This document shows, piece by piece, positions 776 through 21,083 of a DNA stretch of 64,000 nucleotides (position 1 is its first letter; every line of letters starts with the position of its first letter). Position numbers and translations under genes: made by a program. Source of the DNA: an uncultured Candidatus Saccharibacteria bacterium (GTDB lineage Bacteria > Patescibacteriota > Minisyncoccia > Phycocordibacterales > CSBR16-119); contig CAYHDV010000003.1 of NCBI GenBank assembly GCA_964355515.1, positions 7,914 through 71,913 of the forward strand, written 5' to 3'. Below the pieces are notes generated by a model. It had not been told where the DNA came from. It did no database searches and worked only from the letters and a program-made list of their open reading frames with translations.

Positions 776-793
776 TTTTCTTAATTAAACATA

Positions 794-832
794 AAAAAGC
801 TCGGCGCCTCTGGCGCCGAGCTTTTTTATTCA
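794..832 (+). terminator. Rho-independent terminator after clpP
   Basis: GC stem agctcggcgcc/ggcgccgagct followed by a T-tract. Confidence 0.7.
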
Positions 833-1005
833 CCGCAGGATGTTGGCAACATGAAGGAGAGAGATTTTTTACTTCTTTTGAAAGAGAACAAAGCTGTTTT
901 CTTTCAAAAGAAGTAGTACATATTACCAACATCCTATGGTGACTCATATTTTATTATTATCACATAGCCTGTATCTCTCTTTTTTTATTTCTTTACTTAC
1001 ATCAT

Positions 1006-1083
1006 ACTCGCAATGAAACCTCGAATCTATTACAACTCAAGATTTCAATAACGAGGGCAAGCGATTTTTAAGTCGCTTGCCCG
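1006..1083. repeat. Conserved 52-bp imperfect-palindromic element plus adjacent stem-loop (copy 1)
   Basis: actcgcaatgaaacctcgaatctAttacaactcaagatttcaataacgaggg is 51/52 identical to copy 2 at 1734-1785. It is followed by the hairpin gcaagcgatttttaagtcgcttgc. Confidence 0.7.
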
Positions 1084-1161
1084 TTTGTGATTAACCCTAA
1101 CCCGTTATCAGTCCAGGAAGAATTTGACGTCTACCTGGAGGTTCCATCCCCCCCTCTCACT

Positions 1162-1710
1162 TCAATGGCCATCCAGCCAATTGAAGAAATTGTTCTCCGC
1201 TCCTGCCACCACTTCTGGTGACAGTCCAGCCAATGGGGAGGAGTACCCCATTTGGCCGTAATACATTTTTTTAGTATCAAACGGAGGGCAAAATGCCTCC
1301 GGAAACTGAGCCTCTTTATTTTTTTGGGCTTCAGTCAGCCCGCCCTCCCCAAGGAGGGCCAGTTGCCACCACTTGTTCTGGTGGCCATCAGTTATCTGGA
1401 TGTTCCCCACCCGGAAGGATGGGTTGCATCCAAAGGTAAAGAGGTCCCCTCTCGGATTCCTCTCTTCTTTTGCAGCCTGGAACTGGCTGCAAAATTTAAT
1501 AGTCCTCTCTTCCGAGGGACTATCAAATATTTCTCTCGATATGATTGTCAGGGGAATCTCTTCCGCTAACAGGTAATTAATCATCTCGCCATTATCTGGC
1601 CAGATTGTTCCGTTCGCTAGAACCTGATTAATTTTTATCTTTTTCATACTCTCTTCCCTTGCCATCTCTGACTTGAAACCTGCAATAGCAGGAACTTTCC
1701 ACGGGATCAT
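1162..1710 (-). CDS. Hypothetical protein (182 aa), no recognisable domain
   Basis: Long ORF with a coding-like composition, immediately followed on its own strand by the conserved 52-bp element. Confidence 0.5.
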   Translation of the reverse strand: MIPWKVPAIAGFKSEMAREESMKKIKINQVLANGTIWPDNGEMINYLLAEEIPLTIISREIFDSPSEERTIKFCSQFQAAKEERNPRGDLFTFGCNPSFRVGNIQITDGHQNKWWQLALLGEGGLTEAQKNKEAQFPEAFCPPFDTKKMYYGQMGYSSPLAGLSPEVVAGAENNFFNWLDGH

Positions 1711-1733
1711 GGATTGTTTTTAGTTTAACTTTT

Positions 1734-1809
1734 ACTCGCAATGAAACCTCGAATCTCTTACAACTCAAGATTTCAATAACGAGGGAAAGCAGAAACCATC
1801 TGCTTTCCC
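1734..1809. repeat. Conserved 52-bp element plus adjacent stem-loop (copy 2)
   Basis: Direct repeat of 1006-1057. Followed by a different hairpin, gaaagcagaaaccatctgctttcc. Confidence 0.7.
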
Positions 1810-1819
1810 TATATAACCC

Positions 1820-2569
1820 TTATTCCCTCAGCCACTGCTGGATGAAGGTACCCAACCCTGCAAATTCTTGCAGGTCTTGAATTGTTTTGGGAAAAATATC
1901 CCTGGGGTTTTCAGCCCCTCTTTTCATACCTAGTGAACGACCAAGATAATGGCCATCCGCTATCCTTACTCCGACCTTCTTCTCTTGGAAGAAGGGAAGG
2001 ATTTTTTCTTCCAAAAATTTTTTCTGGAAGAAACCTTCCCAAGATTTCTCTTGGGAGGACTCCCATTCGACTACATCCATTGCGGTGTAGCCAATGTTCT
2101 TTAAGTTTTTGTAGACAAAATCTTTGTCTACAAAAACAGAAAATGGATCTTCTACTAAAGACCCATATCCAGAGAAGTCTCCGGACCACCAGCCTAACTG
2201 GCTGATGTCTTCTCTTGATAACTGGGTTTCTATCCCAGCAATATAAATGTTATCAATATGGATAACATTTATGTTGTACTTTTTATTTTGAACTGGGAGA
2301 TTAACTCCCAATTCATGAAGTACCTCTGGGTTTTTAATCCGGAGGTATCCTCTCCCCACCACTTCGTAGTGGAGGGTTTTCGCAATCTCTCTTGGAAGAG
2401 CAACCACGCTCTCCCATTTTAGATTTTGACCACAATCATAGTGGTCAAGTAGCCCTAAGGCTATCTTGAAGTCTGGGCCAGAGCTTAACTCTGGCAAAAC
2501 TTTTGCAATGTTCCCAAAAGAGGGATTCATCGGGAAAAGATTATATTGATGCACTTTTTTCTCATTCAT
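1820..2569 (-). CDS. Hypothetical protein (249 aa)
   Basis: Long ORF. Not recognised. Followed on its own strand by copy 2 of the conserved element. Confidence 0.55.
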   Translation of the reverse strand: MNEKKVHQYNLFPMNPSFGNIAKVLPELSSGPDFKIALGLLDHYDCGQNLKWESVVALPREIAKTLHYEVVGRGYLRIKNPEVLHELGVNLPVQNKKYNINVIHIDNIYIAGIETQLSREDISQLGWWSGDFSGYGSLVEDPFSVFVDKDFVYKNLKNIGYTAMDVVEWESSQEKSWEGFFQKKFLEEKILPFFQEKKVGVRIADGHYLGRSLGMKRGAENPRDIFPKTIQDLQEFAGLGTFIQQWLRE

Positions 2570-2647
2570 TTTTTCTTGTTTTGGTTACTTTTACTCACGA
2601 AAAATCGCAGACAAAAGTAACCAAAACAAATAGGTTTGAATTCCCTA

Positions 2648-2681
2648 CCCAGCACCAATTTCAATTGAAATTGGTGCTGGG
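2648..2681. promoter_or_regulatory. Perfect 34-bp palindrome cccagcaccaatttcaattgaaattggtgctggg, about 80 bp upstream of the 1820..2569 gene
   Basis: 17-bp perfect arms with no flanking T-tract. An operator or cruciform is more likely than an intrinsic terminator. Confidence 0.4.
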
Positions 2682-3512
2682 ATAAGAAAGGCAAGTTGAT
2701 CTTGCCAACAACAGTCAGACGGATTGAACCGTTTGATGATTGAAGAATTTTTTCCATCTCTTTTTTGGTTTTGAGATGAATACTTTATCCGTCCGAATCT
2801 CGCTCTTTGGATAAATAGCGCCCTGTTTTGTGTCTAGGAATGACAACGGTTTTCACCGCAAATATACACACGCTACACATGCATATATTTGCGGTATCGA
2901 AAAGTGCCTCTCTCCTTGCACTGCTCAATACCATTTAATTTTTTAATAACCAGCTCACAAAAATCCTGTCGTGATTTTCTCACCTGTGCAGATGTGATGT
3001 GCCTGGGTTTATTCTATTGTCAAAGTTCTTTTCTCTTTATTACTCTCTCCTTTTGAGAATCCTAAAGATATTTCTGGGAGTAAGACGGGTTAGTTTCTTA
3101 CTTGCCCAGTCGATATCTCTACGATACGATGTGATACTTTTTTCCGACAGCCGACCAAAGGTTTGACTGCGACCCTACACACTGAAGGAGTGATTGCTTT
3201 TGCGAACAATTTCACTTCGGGAGGATAATATCTATGCAAAACTTTAAAGTTATATATTTGACCACTATCCACTTCTTTGTGCTCTCCTCACTCTCTCCTT
3301 AATTAGAGTGAAGAACGGTCAGCTATATATCTTTTTATTTGAAAGAACTTAATTAACTTTCTTGTCTATATAATAGCATCTATTCCTTGTTTTGTCAATT
3401 AATTGTGATTAAATTTATTAAATAGGTCAAAATACGTTGATAAATAAAGCTTTTTTAGTTATCCACATTGTCACAGTTGTATGACAATTACAAATAATGT
3501 ACCATAAAAGGT

Positions 3513-4337
3513 ATGGATAATGACAATATTCTAAGACAAGCAGGTCTCACAGAAGATCAAGCTCAAATATATGAGGCTCTGCTTGACCGTGGAGTTCAGA
3601 GAGCTAGCACCCTCTCAAAATGGACCGGTATTAAAAGAGGTCTCACCTACAAAACCCTCGAGCAGCTCGAGCTTATGGGTTTGATAAAAAAGACTGAAAA
3701 CAAAGGCTCTGTAGCCACTTTTTCGGCCCAACATCCAAGTAATTTAATGCAGAACATAGAAAGAAAGGAGCGTGAAATAGCCCTCTCAAAGGAGATGGTT
3801 ATTTATTCTCTTGGAAGTCTTGTTTCTAAGTACAATCTTCTGGAAGATAAGCCCAATATTCAGTTTTTCGAAGGAATAGAGGGTCTTAATAAGTTATATA
3901 CAGATATAATCGCAATCAAAAAAAATATCCTCCTAATCCAGTCACCAGATGACCGAAATCATCCAGAAATAGAAAAGTTGATTCAATTACAAATAAAGCG
4001 ACAAGTTGATACTAATATACAAACAAGAGCAATCACACCACTCGTTGAAGATACAAAGATCTTTGTAGAAAAATATGATGAAAAAAATCTTGTAACCAGA
4101 CGAATAGTAAAGCCAGGAAACTTTTCTCCCCCAGCTCAAATAATAGTTTTTGGTAACAAGGTTGGAATAACCTCTTTTGAAGAAAATATGATCACAACAA
4201 TAATAGAAAGTGAATCATTCTCAAAAACATTTGAAAGCATATTTAACTTAATTTGGGAGAAACAATCAGAAGAACACGAGGAGATTATTGCTTCTCTTGG
4301 AGTTCATTCAGATAAAGACGGAACATCTCTGCTATAG
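3513..4337 (+). CDS. TrmB-like winged-helix transcriptional regulator
   Basis: N-terminal HTH (LTEDQAQIYEALLDRGVQRASTLSKWTGIKRGLTYKTLEQLELMGLIKK), typical of the TrmB/MarR-type wHTH. About 270 aa with a C-terminal domain. Confidence 0.6.
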   Translation: MDNDNILRQAGLTEDQAQIYEALLDRGVQRASTLSKWTGIKRGLTYKTLEQLELMGLIKKTENKGSVATFSAQHPSNLMQNIERKEREIALSKEMVIYSLGSLVSKYNLLEDKPNIQFFEGIEGLNKLYTDIIAIKKNILLIQSPDDRNHPEIEKLIQLQIKRQVDTNIQTRAITPLVEDTKIFVEKYDEKNLVTRRIVKPGNFSPPAQIIVFGNKVGITSFEENMITTIIESESFSKTFESIFNLIWEKQSEEHEEIIASLGVHSDKDGTSLL

Positions 4338-5979
4338 AAGCGAAGGTTTCTTCTTCTCCGAACTCAGGAGAAAATGTTTCTGTCGTGTGGTGTGAGTCCA
4401 CGGCTTCTTCAAAAAAATTACCCAAGACATCACCTGTTCGAGATAATTCATCATCTTCGCGGTAAGCCCTCCCCATATCAAGAGATACATGAGCCCGGCC
4501 GGCTTCTTCATGATCCTCTCTATCAATCCCTATTCTTAAATTTGAACCCTCCATTAGATTGTTTTGCTTATGAGATTTTGTTGAATTGAAAAATGCTTTT
4601 TTAAGATTTTCATTTGGTACAACCGTATCAAAATTCAACTCAAAATTTATACGAGCCTGGGCATTTCTTTCTTTTCTTGGACGAACAAATGTCTTGAGCT
4701 CATATTCATAACCCTTTGTCTTGTCATCAACCCTCAACTTAAGACCATTTGCTGTTTTGTTTATAAGAGTAAAATCATAATTTTTTTGTTCTGGCATATC
4801 CGCTAAAATATCCAGCATTGTTGTCACACCCTCAATAGCATTCAAAACATCTTCTATATTTAATTTCGTTATATCTTCCATGGCAATACTGTTTGCCCCC
4901 ACCAAAATATCCTTGGCGCGAATCATTAGAGCTTCATAGAGTTCGTAGGGAAGCTTTTCTTTGGAGGGAATATCCAGGTCTGACCCCTCTATTGATTTTG
5001 AAAGTAATTCTTTAATTTTTTCTGCCGTATCAATAAGTTTTGAATATCCTTCAAATATTTTCTCTGACTCTTCCTGACGAAGCTTCGCACCAAGATCTAG
5101 GATTTTGCCCCCCATTTCTTGCCCACCTTGCTCCATAGACAAAAAGGTTCGAAGACCACTTCCGCCATACTTGTTTAAAAAAGATCTTAATTGACCCGCT
5201 TCTTCATTTGTTTTGTTCTTTATATAAGAAAAAAAGTTAAACAATTCAATTAAATTTGTCTGAGAAAAAGAAATCCCTAGATCTTTTTCTATTGGCGCCC
5301 TTAGGGCTTTGTTAGAAAAAAGTTTCTCAAACAAATCTATTTCTTTCTTATTAGCAGGATTCAAAACACCACTCATACTTAATTCATTATCAATTTCTTT
5401 AGAATTTTTAGAAAAAAAGAGTGTTTCATTAATATTTTTTATGTCACGCTTTGGTACACCAAGCCTTTTCATTCTATCTTTATATTCATTAAATTTATTT
5501 TTTTCTATCAACTTCAAGGAATCATCCAAAACAAGCGCAAAATGATTTTTATCAAAATCAATCTTTCTGACACTATTACCAAAGTTTTCCAAAAACAGCC
5601 CATTGTCTACGGTTGTTAGGTACTGAGAGAGGATATAGTTTGAGCCTTCATCTCCCCCCTGAGTATTGTTCAAATTCTCTATATATTGGCTATAAAAAGT
5701 TTTACTAGTGAGGTCACGGCCAATCATTTGGTCTCTATTTTCGCCAGAGCACGCACCTAGAGATGTGATATTTAGATAACTCTCTTCAAATTTATCAGGG
5801 TCTTTAAGGTCAATCTTAGGTAAAACTACATTCTCAATTCGCTTAGCCTCTCCTTCACCATAACCCCATGCGTACTGCTCACCATCACCCATCGATGGGT
5901 TTTTCCAAATTTCTATTCCCTCAATAACAACAGGACTTTCTTCTTGAGTATGATTGTAATTATTTGACCCTTCTTTCAT
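4285..5979 (-). CDS. Large hypothetical protein (564 aa), no recognised domains
   Basis: Uninterrupted ORF, convergent with the regulator and overlapping it by about 50 bp at the 3' ends. Confidence 0.6.
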   Translation of the reverse strand: MKEGSNNYNHTQEESPVVIEGIEIWKNPSMGDGEQYAWGYGEGEAKRIENVVLPKIDLKDPDKFEESYLNITSLGACSGENRDQMIGRDLTSKTFYSQYIENLNNTQGGDEGSNYILSQYLTTVDNGLFLENFGNSVRKIDFDKNHFALVLDDSLKLIEKNKFNEYKDRMKRLGVPKRDIKNINETLFFSKNSKEIDNELSMSGVLNPANKKEIDLFEKLFSNKALRAPIEKDLGISFSQTNLIELFNFFSYIKNKTNEEAGQLRSFLNKYGGSGLRTFLSMEQGGQEMGGKILDLGAKLRQEESEKIFEGYSKLIDTAEKIKELLSKSIEGSDLDIPSKEKLPYELYEALMIRAKDILVGANSIAMEDITKLNIEDVLNAIEGVTTMLDILADMPEQKNYDFTLINKTANGLKLRVDDKTKGYEYELKTFVRPRKERNAQARINFELNFDTVVPNENLKKAFFNSTKSHKQNNLMEGSNLRIGIDREDHEEAGRAHVSLDMGRAYREDDELSRTGDVLGNFFEEAVDSHHTTETFSPEFGEEETFASIAEMFRLYLNELQEKQ

Positions 5980-6178: not shown

Positions 6179-7705
6179 ATGAATATAAAAATAATTATCT
6201 TTTTTGCTCTTACACTTTGTGTGGGAGGAGCTTTGGGATATGCACTACGATATCTCCTTGCAATAGGAAAGCGTGGCGGAGTGGAGCTAGAAATAAAGCA
6301 GATGATAGTAGATGCAAAAGAAGAGGCGTCTAGAATAACCGATGAATCAAAGAAAAAGGCAGAATTAAAAGAGCTAGAACTTAAAAAAGAAGAGAGAGAA
6401 CGAGAGTCAGAATTTAAAAAGACAGAAGACCGATTTATAAAAAAAGAAGAGCTTTTGGATGCAAGACAAGTAGAGCTAGACAAAGAATCAGAAGATATCA
6501 AAAGAAGACTAACAGACATAACAGAAAAACAAGAATTATTAGCTGATCTCGAAACAAAGAAACAAGATGAGCTTTCTAAGATTGCCCAAAAAACAAAGGA
6601 GGAGGCGCTCGAAGAAATATTTATTTCAATAGAAAGACAATACAGTGAAGACTTGCTTGCTCGAACTCAAAAGCTAGAACTTGCAAACAAAGAAAAACTC
6701 GACGCAAGAGCTCGTGATATTTTGACTATGTCTATTCAAAGAATGGCAAACGCCAATGTTTCAGACATCATGACAACAAACGTCACCCTATCTTCAGATG
6801 AAGAAAAAGGTAAGATTATCGGAAAAGAAGGTAGAAATATTCGTGCATTTGAAAGAGCTGCTGGAGTGGAGCTTATTGTAGACGACACGCCAGGGGTTGT
6901 GATTATTTCTGCGTTTGATCCTGTGCGACGACAAGTGGCACGTGTAGCACTTGAACACCTGATCGCCGATGGTAGAATCCAACCAGCAAAAATAGAAGAA
7001 GTGGTGAAAAAATCACAAGAAGAAGTAAACAACATAATCAAACAAAAAGGGGAAGAGGCTGTCTATGAACTTGGAATATATAACTTTGATCCACGAATTG
7101 TGGCTATTCTGGGGCGACTTTATTTCCGAACAAGCTACGGACAAAACGTCCTTCAGCACTCAGTAGAGATGGCACACATCGCAGCCATGATCGCAGAAGA
7201 GCTTGGGGCTGATGTAGCGGTAGCAAAGGCTGGAGCATTGGTGCATGACATAGGAAAGGCTCTTACACACGAAGTCCAGGGATCCCATGTTGATATTGGA
7301 ATAAGAATCCTTACAAAATTCGGAGCAGAAAAAGCAGTGATAGATGCAATGAAGAGTCATCATGATGAGTACCCATATGAAACCCTTGAAGCTCATATCG
7401 TCCAAACAGCAGATGCTATCTCAGGTGGAAGACCGGGGGCCAGACGTGATTCAGTAGAAAATTACTTGAAACGACTAGAGGAGCTAGAAAAAATAGCAAC
7501 AAGCCAAAAAGGTGTTGAGAAGGCTTATGCCCTATCAGCCGGGAGAGAAATCCGAGTGTTTGTAACACCAGAAAATATTTCTGATATTGAAGCCAAAGAA
7601 ACAGCAAGAGAAATTGCAAAAAACATTGAAGCAAATCTCAAATACCCAGGTGAAATACGAGTTGTGGTTATTCGAGAAAATAGAGTGATTGAGTTTGCAA
7701 GGTAG
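6179..7705 (+). CDS. rny: Ribonuclease Y
   Basis: N-terminal TM helix, coiled-coil, KH domain (KGKIIGKEGRNIRAFE) and HD domain (HSVEMAHIAAMIAEELG...HDIGKA). Confidence 0.9.
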   Translation: MNIKIIIFFALTLCVGGALGYALRYLLAIGKRGGVELEIKQMIVDAKEEASRITDESKKKAELKELELKKEERERESEFKKTEDRFIKKEELLDARQVELDKESEDIKRRLTDITEKQELLADLETKKQDELSKIAQKTKEEALEEIFISIERQYSEDLLARTQKLELANKEKLDARARDILTMSIQRMANANVSDIMTTNVTLSSDEEKGKIIGKEGRNIRAFERAAGVELIVDDTPGVVIISAFDPVRRQVARVALEHLIADGRIQPAKIEEVVKKSQEEVNNIIKQKGEEAVYELGIYNFDPRIVAILGRLYFRTSYGQNVLQHSVEMAHIAAMIAEELGADVAVAKAGALVHDIGKALTHEVQGSHVDIGIRILTKFGAEKAVIDAMKSHHDEYPYETLEAHIVQTADAISGGRPGARRDSVENYLKRLEELEKIATSQKGVEKAYALSAGREIRVFVTPENISDIEAKETAREIAKNIEANLKYPGEIRVVVIRENRVIEFAR

Positions 7706-7808: not shown

Positions 7809-8048
7809 TCATGGCTTCTTTTTTCCAAATGTCTTGTTCCAAATGAGGGATAACCCCAAAAGCATCAAAATCAAAGGAATGAGAGCATTCATTACAAGTG
7901 AGTAAATCGCAGTTATGATTGTCTGTTGTAGTTCTGGGCTGAACATGACAATCAAGGTGAGTATGCTCAATATGATAATCACAGTTCTCTTTGGTTCCCC
8001 AAAAAAGAAATCCATCCATTTTTCTCCAGTATTTTTTTCGTCAGCCAT
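7809..8048 (-). CDS. Small hypothetical membrane protein (79 aa)
   Basis: Two hydrophobic helices. Bracketed by terminator hairpins. Confidence 0.4.
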   Translation of the reverse strand: MADEKNTGEKWMDFFFGEPKRTVIIILSILTLIVMFSPELQQTIITAIYSLVMNALIPLILMLLGLSLIWNKTFGKKKP

Positions 8049-8774: not shown

Positions 8775-9215
8775 ACACTAGAGTCACCATGCAACGCATG
8801 GTGGCTTTTGTGTTTTACAGGTAGTAAGGGGAATCGAACCGAGCCCCGACGAAGTCTTTCGAGTATAACGAGAAAGCCGGGGCGAGTGGCGGCTGATGGA
8901 ACGAGATTTTTTGTGAGTGAAACGAAGCAAAAAATCCGTGAGAGGAGCCTATTCCCCGCACCCTCACAAATCTAAAAAGTCATGAATTACTCCATGGCTT
9001 TTTAGATTCTCGAGACGGGGGCGAGAAAGCAAATTTCTTTGCTTTCGTGGGAATCGAACCAGCGGAGCCATATTTCGAACAAAGTGAGAAAAAGCGAGAT
9101 GCGTCCAGCAGTACTTACTTCGCAGAAAATCTTTGATTTTTGAGAAAGTTAGTAACTGCGGGATCATTCCCCGCACCCTCACAAAGAAACAAAGACGCCA
9201 ACCTGGCGTCTTTGT
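8775..9215 (+). repeat. Two decayed tandem copies of tRNA-Gly (pseudo-tRNAs). The 20-nt tRNA 3' end attccccgcaccctcacaaa is directly repeated at 8951-8970 and 9166-9185, each copy followed by its own terminator hairpin
   Basis: Repeats fall at 196 and 215 bp spacing. The units retain D-arm-like (gtgagtgaaacg, gttagtaactgcgg) and acceptor/T-arm fragments. Inverted T-arm-like gggaatcgaacc is present in both units. Confidence 0.6.
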
Positions 9216-10546: not shown

Positions 10547-10927
10547 CTAAATACTCAATATTTCAACTTTTGCAGTTTTTTCTTCTTGATTTATTAGGAC
10601 GGATAACAATTTTATCTCTGTTTCACATGAAACATCATTATTCATAATATACATCTCAACAGCCTTCAAAAATCTTTCAATTTTCTTTGGGTGCATGTTT
10701 TCCGCAGGATTATATGTTTCATGTGAAACATCAAGCTTTTTTATACTACTTTTTACTTCAAAAAAATAAATAATTTTAGATTTTTTGGCAATTATGTCTA
10801 TTTCTCCTTGTTTTAAGGTAAAATTTCTCTCAATAATAGAAAAACCTTTACTTTTTAAATACCTAACAGCCAAATTTTCGCCCAATTCCCCTATTTGTTG
10901 AGTTTTTGATGTAAATACTCTAATCAT
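10547..10927 (-). CDS. yraN: YraN/UPF0102-family endonuclease
   Basis: GELGENLAVRYLKSKGFSIIERNF...GEIDIIAKK...FFEVK, the classic YraN N-terminal and PD-(D/E)xK-like pattern. Confidence 0.8.
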   Translation of the reverse strand: MIRVFTSKTQQIGELGENLAVRYLKSKGFSIIERNFTLKQGEIDIIAKKSKIIYFFEVKSSIKKLDVSHETYNPAENMHPKKIERFLKAVEMYIMNNDVSCETEIKLLSVLINQEEKTAKVEILSI

Positions 10928-10958: not shown

Positions 10959-11597
10959 TTAGTCCAGCAAAAGATTGTCTAGTTTTTTGTCTTCCTGTCG
11001 CCTTTCTGCAATGGCATGCACAAGACCAAGGCTATTTTCTCGATAGTCTTCACTATTTTGGTATTGTCCTAGAATAATATCTGGATGTACGAGCTTTTTA
11101 GATGTTTCATGTGAAACATATTCAGGCCAACTGGATACATATAAATCCCCTTCTCCAAGGCCATGAACCATATAATTCAGGTTTACATATGCTCCAAGGT
11201 AAAGTAAATATTCGTTTGTGGCAATATGTTTCACTTTATATCGTCCCTGAAAAAGTGACCCCGATCGTTCATATTTATCGTTAAAGTACATAGTATATCC
11301 TGTGCCAACCTTCTGCATAAACTTTTCGATACCACCTTCAACAAGTGGTGTTAAAATCATATGAAAATGGTTTGGGTTTAAACAAAAGGCTACAATCTCA
11401 ACCAACTTAGAGGTTGAACCTCTAAGTTTTCCATACTTCATCACATGCAATCCACCAAATGAGTCAATTGTATTTAATTTGTTTAAATGCCGAAGAAAAA
11501 CCTTCAAATCTTCTTTGTCTTGGAATACCGTTCGTTTATCTACACCGCGATTGTATACATGGTAGTATTCTCCAGGCATAAGTGATATACGTTTCAT
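10959..11597 (-). CDS. IS200-like Y1 (HUH) transposase / REP-associated tyrosine transposase (RAYT)
   Basis: YHVYNRG N-terminal block, HuH motif (NPNHFHMIL) and catalytic Tyr context (QGRYKVKHI). Flanked by REP-like palindromes. Confidence 0.8.
   Translation of the reverse strand: MKRISLMPGEYYHVYNRGVDKRTVFQDKEDLKVFLRHLNKLNTIDSFGGLHVMKYGKLRGSTSKLVEIVAFCLNPNHFHMILTPLVEGGIEKFMQKVGTGYTMYFNDKYERSGSLFQGRYKVKHIATNEYLLYLGAYVNLNYMVHGLGEGDLYVSSWPEYVSHETSKKLVHPDIILGQYQNSEDYRENSLGLVHAIAERRQEDKKLDNLLLD
11406..11426. repeat. REP-like palindrome inside the RAYT ORF (in-frame, encodes KLRGSTSKL)
   Basis: Exact copy cttagaggttgaacctctaag within the coding sequence, between the N-terminal block and the HuH motif. 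Confidence 0.7.
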
Positions 11598-20150: not shown

Positions 20151-21083
20151 TTATTTTTTATTTCCATGAAACTTTTTATGAATTTCTTTTAGGTGTTTGT
20201 TTGTAACGTGGGTATAGATTTGAGTGGTAGAAATATCTGCGTGTCCAAGCATAACCTGCACAGACCTAATATCAGCTCCATTTGAAAGCAAGTCAGTGGC
20301 GAAACAGTGTCGAATCACATGGGGGGTAACCTTCTTTGTGATGCCGGCGATGGTGGCGTACTTTCTCACAATCCTTCCAACAGATCTTCTATCTAAACCT
20401 TTTTCATCATCTACTTTGTTTTTGTTTTTTGAGACATTTACAAATAGTGCTTCCGAGAAGTCTTTTCGTTGTGTGAAATATTTTTTTAGGGAATCTTTGG
20501 CTTCTGCAGATAGAAATACTACTCGGAGTTTGCCACCCTTTCCTCTAATCGAAAATTCATCTCGAGAAAAATCAATGTCTCTAAAGAGGGAACAGAGCTC
20601 TGACACACGGAGGCCAGTAGAAAAAAGCATCTCTAGTATCGCCTTGTCTCTATATCTGATTTCTAAATTCTTTTCTTTTTCGGGAGCCTCTAGGAGCCTC
20701 TTTAGTTCCTGATCTGAAATAACATCAATTTGTCTTTGGGGGACTTTTCCTAGTTCAATCTGTTCTGAAGAAAGAGTTTTTTCTCCTCGTCTTGTCATGT
20801 ATTTCAAAAAAGACCGCAAGGCAATCAGGTGATAGTTCTGAGTACTCTTTGAGAGTGTTTCTCCTGTTCTTCTGTTGTGGCTGGCTCCGGCTGATTGTCT
20901 GTGAAGCCAAATCCGAAACTCTCTCACCATGTCATCTGTTATTTGCTGTGGCTTGGTGGCCCCTGTTTGTTTCAAGAAGACATTTAGATAGTGGTCGTAG
21001 TTTCTAATAGTATTCAAAGCTCGACCTTTTTCGATTTCTAGATACTCAAGAAACTGTCTTTTTAATTTTTCTAAATCATTCAT
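20151..21083 (-). CDS. Site-specific tyrosine recombinase, XerC/XerD family
   Basis: N-terminal SAM-like core-binding domain. Catalytic R..HxxR..Y region (LRVSEL, HVIRHCFATDLL, TQIYTHV). Confidence 0.85.
   Translation of the reverse strand: MNDLEKLKRQFLEYLEIEKGRALNTIRNYDHYLNVFLKQTGATKPQQITDDMVREFRIWLHRQSAGASHNRRTGETLSKSTQNYHLIALRSFLKYMTRRGEKTLSSEQIELGKVPQRQIDVISDQELKRLLEAPEKEKNLEIRYRDKAILEMLFSTGLRVSELCSLFRDIDFSRDEFSIRGKGGKLRVVFLSAEAKDSLKKYFTQRKDFSEALFVNVSKNKNKVDDEKGLDRRSVGRIVRKYATIAGITKKVTPHVIRHCFATDLLSNGADIRSVQVMLGHADISTTQIYTHVTNKHLKEIHKKFHGNKK

Follow-up and report, generated by a model that had tools for sequence, protein, structure and literature searches.

What does a nearly identical repeat do behind each of two unrelated orphan genes? 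The question is raised by a locus in a 64,000-nucleotide stretch (the window) of contig CAYHDV010000003.1 from an uncultured Candidatus Saccharibacteria bacterium, where geneB (2569-1820), a module, geneA (1710-1162) and another module follow each other on the minus strand, each module comprising a small GC hairpin and one copy of the repeat. A sequence-only reading of the window had described this order and had proposed either recombination sites of the attC type or an RNA module shared by the 3′ untranslated regions (UTRs) of the two genes. The repeat element is an RNA hairpin that acts on the gene strand and has no Rfam family, and in related arrays the same position is taken by candidate hammerhead ribozymes. 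We favor, with a probability of roughly 0.6, the view that the repeats are RNA-level punctuation modules in a variable accessory-gene array, which would separate cistrons and protect 3′ ends, perhaps by way of an RNase III-type cut.

Repeat modules and their fold on the gene strand

A repeat search of the 64-kb window returned a 58-nucleotide (nt) direct repeat at 1005-1062 and 1733-1790, in which 56 of 58 positions are identical (97%); the near-identity and the gene order had thus been described correctly. Over a 51-nt core the copies differ at one base, which lies in the apical loop, and a search of the window with this core found exactly 2 places (chance expectation, 0.00). Each 58-nt copy is preceded on the minus strand by a variable GC hairpin (hairpin 1; 1055-1082 and 1783-1809), and these two hairpins differ in sequence but share their shape, as had also been noted. 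A third, diverged copy was located upstream of geneB (2637-2692; 20.8 bits, E = 0.004) with a covariance model, R1, which was built from three near-identical copies and searched with filters off. The three modules (M2, M1 and M0) contain the following features.

1091-1108 (-): module M2, tandem GGGUUA boxes GGGUUAGGGUUAA (boxes 1091-1103) and the proposed 5′ strand of the pairing P0 (AACGG; see below); 94% identical to the module of the related locus L001
1055-1082 (-): module M2, hairpin 1 (GGGCAAGCGA / UCGCUUGCCC), terminator-like, with tail UCGUUAUUGA
1003-1058 (-): module M2, long hairpin, copy 1 of what the sequence-only reading had called a 52-bp element; 87.8 bits with R1, included in alignment A7
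1814-1819 (-): module M1, GGGUUA box abutting the geneB stop codon (TAA directly followed by GGGUUA), assigned from the sense-strand enrichment of such boxes
1783-1809 (-): module M1, hairpin 1, variable GC hairpin (GGGAAAGCAGA / UCUGCUUUCCC), assigned from sequence and fold
1731-1786 (-): module M1, long hairpin, copy 2 of the 52-bp element; 87.8 bits with R1, included in A7
2690-2706 (-): module M0, hairpin 1, terminator-like (GGCAAGAUCAACUUGCC), immediately 5′ of the third long-hairpin copy
2637-2692 (-): module M0, long hairpin (third copy), a 17-bp palindrome between UUUCUUAUC and GUAGGGAA; all of its pairs form in A7

Folded as minus-strand RNA, the two modules that follow geneA and geneB form two adjacent hairpins each, at -38.9 and -39.0 kcal/mol (z = -6.2 and -8.4), whereas the plus strand reaches only -27.1 and -22.9 kcal/mol. 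The same module folded as DNA yields about -16.7 kcal/mol versus -39 as RNA, and a further strand comparison gave -7.3 for the antisense fold versus -22.2 for the sense fold. In M1 and M2, the long hairpin consists of a closing stem of 4 bp and a stem of 14 bp on either side of a UAU/UU internal loop, and the two stems together contain 5 G-U pairs. At the gathering scores of Rfam 15, three tRNAs are all that passes in the whole window and the element belongs to no family; likewise, a permissive Rfam scan of 780-3500 gave no credible match on the modules, and no ribozyme family even at E <= 10.

Related loci were reached through the genomic contexts of the geneB homologue P0003 and of orthologues of the TrmB-like regulator that adjoins the array (L003/L004, L011, L014, L015, L019, L020, and L021). 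One of them, L011, carries diverged copies of the element, which R1 finds on the array strand at 6817-6869 (28.8 bits, E = 2.6e-5), 3079-3129 (22.8 bits), 1883-1934 (20.0 bits) and, more weakly, 3789-3837 (14.2 bits, E = 0.26). On the array strand, six of the seven copies (among them three of the four L011 matches and the third window copy) come immediately after an intact hairpin that itself follows an open reading frame (ORF); the L011 copy at 3079-3129 is preceded by the 3′ half of hairpin 1 only. When the 7 copies from three genomes were aligned (A7; 18 pairs), 100% of the cells formed standard pairs and 12 of the 18 pairs changed on both sides. The covariation score of 0.815 compares with 0.08-0.17 for partners slid by 1-3 columns, and none of 500 shuffles reached it. 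The closing stem and the unpaired internal-loop bases (UUAUY and AUU/GUA) are conserved, while the long stem, of 13 to 17 bp, varies. All seven copies fold better in sense than in antisense, with 2-5 G-U pairs each. The element is a hairpin motif kept through compensatory changes at a conserved genomic position. Together with the hammerhead candidates at the same position in related arrays, the covariation of the copies and their G-U-dependent pairing on the coding strand bear out the suggestion of a 3′-UTR RNA module.

A position shared with hammerhead candidates

The element is rare. A 22-base pattern of its core was found at one place among 185,579 species-representative genomes, namely in a Candidatus Paceibacterota metagenome assembly (L001), where it is syntenic, and no match was present in viral contigs. 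The lone match of this pattern in a metagenome collection (L002) is a chance hairpin in an unrelated contig without flank similarity. No further copy was detected in the 10 kb beyond the window start. These counts (one place in representative genomes, none in viral contigs and one chance match in metagenomes) mean that the element is not a dispersed repeat; occurrence at many unrelated intergenic sites, which the sequence-only reading had named as a sign of a generic terminator, was looked for in the window and in the representative genomes with a negative result.

In L001, too, the TrmB-like regulator is followed by about 1 kb without coding sequence and then by small orphan genes in a row, and the genes for HU, RNase Y and ClpP are close by. 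The L001 module is 94% identical to window positions 1006-1108 over 103 nt, whereas DNA identity between the two genomes is only about 70% for RNase Y, HU and ClpP. The genes upstream of the shared module are unrelated (a 454-aa gene in L001, geneA in the window). A second L001 module consists of a box, a hairpin and UUUCU, without an element in the position that follows hairpin 1 (the slot).

In the window and in most related arrays, the typical end of a unit is made up of GGGUUA boxes (one to three), then a GC-rich hairpin 1 and, abutting it, a slot element. Within 16.1 kb of arrays, GGGTTA occurs 18 times in sense and 3 times in antisense orientation (shuffles, 4.1 +/- 2.1), and all 18 sense boxes are located a few bases 5′ of a hairpin.

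Type III hammerhead ribozymes have a core of CUGANGA ... CGAAA, three stems and a UH cleavage site. In L003, four successive genes are each followed by a variable hairpin and then by a type III hammerhead candidate (33-45 bits, E = 1e-7 to 3e-4), which places the candidates just under the Rfam gathering cutoff for hammerhead III (RF00008; 48.5 bits), and stems I and III show compensatory differences between copies. Further type III candidates were found on the array strand in L014 (34.7 bits), L011 (30 bits), L019 (34.6 bits) and L021 (40 and 37.9 bits). Those of L014, L011 and L021 directly follow GGGUUA box(es) and a hairpin, which is the context of the window hairpin, and the arrangement of hairpin plus hammerhead recurs four times in L003 and once in L019. 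Because 3-4 copies of the hairpin and 1 hammerhead lie in the single array of L011, hairpin and hammerhead are alternative fillings of one slot. The hammerhead core does not occur in the window, and the tail of hairpin 1 is not U-rich in modules with a hammerhead.

Two of the four L003 hammerheads (6628-6650 and 9140-9162, plus strand) have CCGAUGAG instead of CUGAUGAG, which we take to be a change of U4 to C with weaker activity expected. The third hairpin that follows the L003 hammerheads was considered as a homologue of the window element and rejected, given that alignment A3 was unsupportive and R1 gave no credible L003 match. An RNA motif of another kind, DUF805b (RF02914), is present within the L003 array at 10720-10754 (+), where it scores 50.8 bits, above its gathering score, 19 nt before an ORF without a DUF805 domain. 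A weaker DUF805b match in L011 (1863-1895, minus strand; 26.8 bits) overlaps the 3′ flank (GAUAGGGAAGC) of a diverged hairpin copy, and the two elements may be related. DUF805b is a short hairpin with a tail that is annotated as cis-regulatory for DUF805 genes; the window copies have no DUF805b match, and there are no DUF805 genes here. The main text of the paper from which DUF805b originates does not mention it.

The array, its leader and its genes

geneA and geneB form the end of a variable accessory-gene array that is read from a conserved promoter and leader beside a TrmB-like regulator, a layout that related Paceibacterota share. The features of the array in the window, other than the modules, are the following.

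3513-4337 (+): TrmB-like helix-turn-helix (HTH) regulator (Pfam PF01978), divergent from the array and the conserved anchor of the locus; orthologues adjoin the same promoter, leader and array in L001, L003, L011, L014, L020 and L021
3370-3398 (-): sigma-70-type promoter into the array (TTGACA, 17 nt, TGnTATTAT; 11 of 12 consensus matches, extended -10)
3063-3121 (-): leader hairpin with apical loop AAACUAACCCGU; its UAACC core is invariant across genomes
2566-2757 (-): remnant of a small leader ORF with the N-terminal motif TVVGKINLP, running into module M0
1820-2569 (-): geneB, 249 aa, rare family without known domain, N-terminally shorter than its homologues
1648-1730 (-): conserved geneA 5′ UTR, containing a ribosome-binding site and a small hairpin (1679-1692) that covaries
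1162-1710 (-): geneA, ORF of 182 aa; likely start ATG at 1647, giving 161 aa
830-942 (-): nested, almost perfect hairpin of 113 nt that closes the array, identified by its inverted repeats (fold of 780-1005, -87.6 kcal/mol), ahead of the bidirectional clpP terminator at 791-829
4285-5979 (-): large protein convergent with the regulator

The leader was compared in a 7-locus alignment (A2; window, L001, L003, L011, L012/L013 and L015), in which TTGACA is invariant. A promoter of the form TTGACA-N17-TAnnnT, pointing away from the regulator, is common to all A2 loci, and the same pattern is present in L020 and L021. A promoter scan detected no promoter between the array genes of the window. The structured leader spans about 0.8 kb in the window and roughly 0.7-1.5 kb across loci, with no Rfam match; L019 is an exception, its first array gene lying just 171 nt from the TrmB start. 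The leader hairpin recurs at 898-956 in L001 and, on the minus strand, at about 8581-8640 in L011, 418-480 in L012, 8521-8580 in L015, 8249 in L020 and 8613 in L021. Its stems covary strongly: in a manual alignment of five genomes, most pairs are represented by 2-4 Watson-Crick or G-U pair types, and the loop reads UAACCC in six of seven genomes and UAACCA in L015.

Two possible pairings involve the boxes or their surroundings. The leader loop is complementary to the GGGUUA boxes, and in the window its sequence CUAACCCGU matches ACGGGUUAG at 1097-1105 over 9 nt. In seven modules, a 5-mer just 5′ of the box can pair with a 5-mer just 3′ of hairpin 1; this pairing, P0, occurs in four compensating versions (AACGG/UCGUU, AAGAG/CUCUU, ACAGG/CCUGU and GACAG/CUGUC). 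It forms the minimum-energy fold in three of the seven modules and lies within 1.3-4.1 kcal/mol of it in the others. P0 and the active fold are close in energy and exclude each other, since both draw on one strand: the 5-mer 3′ of hairpin 1 is needed for P0 and, as the 5′ strand, for hammerhead stem III or for the stem that closes the long hairpin.

The TrmB-like regulator has a weak match to Csa3-type HTH proteins (30 bits, under the cutoff). The large protein convergent with it overlaps it slightly in nearly all loci, measures 564-818 aa, and has no Pfam match or a weak acetyltransferase match (L003 2057-4312, L011 9842-12046, L012 1638-3917, L018 1134-3464, L020 9756-12212, and L021 9776-12049). 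An ORF with the motif TV(V/I)GKI(N/D)LP stands at the end of the leader in L014 (3708-3884, minus strand; 58 aa) and in L011 (about 7950-8000, minus strand), with ~50-58 aa in the two; the window keeps its N-terminal part alone, and there the GKINLP codons form hairpin 1 of M0. Relative to L001, the L014 leader seems to have gained a cassette of 830 nt, but part of this stretch, namely the small ORF, is present in the window and L011 as well, and a deletion in L001 is the better reading. The leaders of L001 and L014 contain a 15-mer, AAAAAUCUCUCUCC(U), that is also present in the hairpin at the close of the window array.

Beyond the leader, each array is a one-directional row of mostly orphan genes, and an all-against-all BLASTP comparison of the array proteins of seven loci yielded only two cross-genome pairs. 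Some arrays carry conflict-type genes: Csx3 in L015 (7629-8246) and Cas_VVA1548 in L019 (7135-7806), a weakly STIV_B116/Csx16-like protein and a viperin-like protein in L021 (7178-7528 and 4291-5343), a member of the DHH/CorA-associated family (PADLOC E = 1.7e-18) and a mad2-like protein in L011 (3914-5200 and 3180-3761), and RelB/YafQ in L020 (5620-6163). With almost no genes in common between arrays, and conflict-type genes in some, the description of the locus as a cassette-like accessory or defence islet is a fair one for gene content. Four metagenome contigs with TrmB orthologues (L012, L013, L017, and L018) break off in or before the leader, at a distance of 300-870 nt upstream from the TrmB start, which would fit an assembly interrupted by strain-level variation of the array. 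In L011, comparison of 3079-3160 with 3789-3880 (both minus strand) reveals that one module retains, of hairpin 1, the 3′ half alone (AAAAACUCGCC); this half is the same as in the neighboring module but is fused to a different upstream hairpin, which suggests a past recombination or deletion breakpoint inside the hairpin 1 loop. It may be speculated that gene exchange uses the highly conserved modules as homology arms.

The products of geneA and geneB are not paralogues, and neither has a match in Pfam, PADLOC, PHROGs or a PDB sequence profile. Neither geneB nor the module was matched in a phage database. Among 5.8 billion protein clusters, geneA matches itself alone and geneB has 5 homologues, with 19 representatives of geneB among 1.84 billion. 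Relative to these homologues, geneB is short by about 70-90 N-terminal residues (alignment A1). An AlphaFold2 model of geneB from 17 sequences (predicted local distance difference test, pLDDT, 89.4; predicted template modelling score, pTM, 0.86) has no significant structural neighbor in PDB or BFVD, and the protein may have an undescribed fold. The contexts of geneB homologues in L005-L008 belong to a different genome type with HNH, Eco57I, TnpB and EAD11 genes; their intergenic regions contain ordinary terminators, and none of the modules described here is present.

The sequence ahead of geneA is shared with L001. Window positions 1634-1790 are 80.5% identical over 159 nt to L001 3010-3165, a stretch that covers the hairpin and the 5′ UTR up to the start codon of an unrelated L001 ORF, and the small hairpin in this UTR shows a compensatory change (CCUGC/GCAGG in the window, CUUGC/GCAAG in L001). 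Since this upstream stretch is conserved non-coding sequence, the likely start of geneA is at 1647. The geneA stop codon lies about 80 nt ahead of its hairpin, and a frameshift that would extend geneA to the module is unsupported.

A proposed separation of cistrons and its alternatives

If the modules are RNA punctuation, the array would be transcribed on the minus strand from the promoter at 3398-3370 through the structured leader. A hammerhead abutting hairpin 1 would then cut just 3′ of this hairpin, leaving an upstream mRNA that ends in a stable hairpin and a downstream RNA that begins with a 5′-OH, as expected from established hammerhead chemistry and from the clustered hammerheads of prophages, which flank single genes and cut polycistronic RNA in vitro (PMC3088659). 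Because it occupies the same slot, the window hairpin would do the hammerhead's job by another route, marking where the polycistronic RNA is separated into single-gene mRNAs, and the upstream mRNA would keep hairpin 1 as a protective 3′ end. As the likeliest agent we would guess an RNase III-type endonuclease, specific for double strands, as for the early transcript of phage T7. With 4 bp, a 3x2 internal loop and 13-17 bp, about two turns of double-stranded RNA, the long hairpin appears to resemble a T7-type RNase III signal. We infer from these features both that cleavage occurs and which enzyme would carry it out.

Known systems offer close parallels. The clustered hammerheads of prophages and bacteria bound the members of one-directional rows of variable, mostly hypothetical genes with small structured RNAs, and their proposed role is to cut a long transcript into single-gene mRNAs (Perreault et al., 2011; PMC3088659); the arrays related to the window likewise carry type III candidates. 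In contrast to these clusters, the window element lacks a hammerhead core, and the arrays are chromosomal, with a fixed locus at the TrmB-like regulator, a long conserved leader and GGGUUA boxes. The polycistronic precursor of T7 contains five signals for RNase III, whose internal loops confine the cut to one strand and leave stabilizing 3′ ends (PMC3867540). These signals are hairpins of ~50-60 nt between cistrons, with an internal loop between the lower and upper stems and with copies that are similar within a transcript, and the upstream mRNA is left with a stabilizing 3′ hairpin (PMC3867540), as is proposed here. They differ from the window element, in which the internal-loop sequence is strictly conserved and which comes after an extra hairpin and a box; its cleavage, moreover, is predicted only.

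Several points weigh against cleavage by such a route. No RNase III gene was found among the window ORFs scanned, no gene follows module copy 1 (M2), and recognizable copies of the element in three genomes make a small family, whose A7 alignment was fitted to the model structure and so is biased towards pairing. Moreover, hairpin 1 of M2 with its tail UCGUUAUUGA is terminator-like, and the units could be parted by termination instead. One could thus propose a terminator combined with a 5′-UTR element and no cleavage at all, in which hairpin 1 and a U-rich tail end most transcripts and the long hairpin belongs to the leader of the next gene, as a 5′ stabilizer or a site of translational or protein-binding control. 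This account is unlikely, even though a lenient terminator scan accepts hairpin 1 of M2, the conserved 159-nt stretch described above takes in both the long hairpin and the 5′ UTR behind it up to the next start codon, and the second L001 module has a box, a hairpin and UUUCU with an empty slot. The U tract is poor, being interrupted in M2 and reading ACUCUUAUUC in the L011 equivalent; geneA would depend on read-through, as no promoter was found between the genes; M2 has no downstream gene for its long hairpin to serve; and where hairpin 1 precedes a hammerhead its tail is not U-rich, hairpin 1 there being a 3′ end that cleavage would make. A further proposal, which we consider very unlikely, is an RNA-controlled gene-cassette system in which the leader loop pairs in trans with the boxes, and leader or protein binding frees the P0 strand and switches on cleavage at cassette boundaries, much as the trans-activating CRISPR RNA (tracrRNA) directs the processing of CRISPR arrays; if it were true, the window hairpin would be a guide-dependent processing site or a new self-cleaving motif. 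The presence of the hairpin in the hammerhead slot, even within the same L011 array, and the conservation of the internal-loop UUAUU and AUU while the stems covary, would fit a reading in which the hairpin, alone or with hairpin 1 and a GGGUUA box, is a new class of self-cleaving ribozyme that directly replaces the hammerhead. It is highly improbable that this is so. The element folds into a plain hairpin that is interrupted by a small internal loop; it has no junction, a pseudoknot is not supported, and the small ribozymes known so far have more elaborate structures. In addition, both apical loops are free to vary, and no Rfam ribozyme family came up in the permissive scan at E <= 10.

Explanations at the level of DNA fare worse. 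Cassette recombination sites, attC-like or similar, at which a recombinase inserts and excises orphan genes, would account for arrays whose content turns over almost wholly between genomes while the flanks are conserved, for the same module standing behind unrelated genes and being better conserved than housekeeping genes, and for the breakpoint suggested by the halved hairpin 1 of L011. Integron cassettes are indeed similar in that promoterless, unrelated and often orphan genes stand behind one promoter and turn over rapidly, and in that every gene has behind it an imperfect palindrome which is conserved within the array. Here, by contrast, there is no IntI and there are no R/L boxes; two independent hairpins take the place of a single bulged, imperfect one; the fold on the coding strand is specific to RNA, its G-U-reliant pairing weakening as DNA or on the other strand; and the same slot can be filled by hammerheads, which act only as RNA. 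No integrase adjoins the array, its neighbor being the TrmB-like regulator, and the sole tyrosine recombinase among the ORFs scanned (20151-21083, minus strand) is 18 kb away and scores 247.7 bits as XerD and 138 bits with the integron-integrase model TIGR02249 (cutoff, 265). No pair of R″ (RYYYAAC) and R′ (GTTRRRY) boxes occurs on either strand of 950-1900, with 4 in the whole window. The attC-type site that the sequence-only reading had proposed is therefore highly doubtful. As for a selfish or generic repeat, such as a repetitive extragenic palindromic (REP) sequence, a miniature inverted-repeat element or a scattered terminator, the element is a palindromic repeat, and a weak IS200-like Y1 transposase ORF (10959-11597, minus strand; Pfam 32.6 bits, below the cutoff for REP-associated transposases) is present in the window, although it does not adjoin the array. 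But the window has two close copies and one diverged copy in 64 kb, all inside one array, and the REP reading fails because the whole genome of the sole matching species representative has a single copy, which is syntenic; an explanation of this kind is scarcely credible. RNA-level punctuation of the array remains our preferred reading.

The hairpin is an uncatalogued structured RNA motif with covariation support, and the locus points to a large conserved leader RNA as well; for this phylum, hardly any RNA biology has been studied by experiment. Since the arrays hold orphan and conflict-type genes, they may be a hotspot of defence, or of interaction with the host, in symbiotic bacteria of the candidate phyla. 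Bacteria commonly carry self-cleaving ribozymes, and for nearly all of these the biological role is unknown (PMC6765202). That hammerheads and a hairpin that does not look like a ribozyme share one defined slot in homologous arrays, with a promoter, leader and regulator in common, amounts to a natural experiment on the function of the slot, and it provides well-defined surroundings in which ideas on the role of hammerheads in bacteria can be tested.

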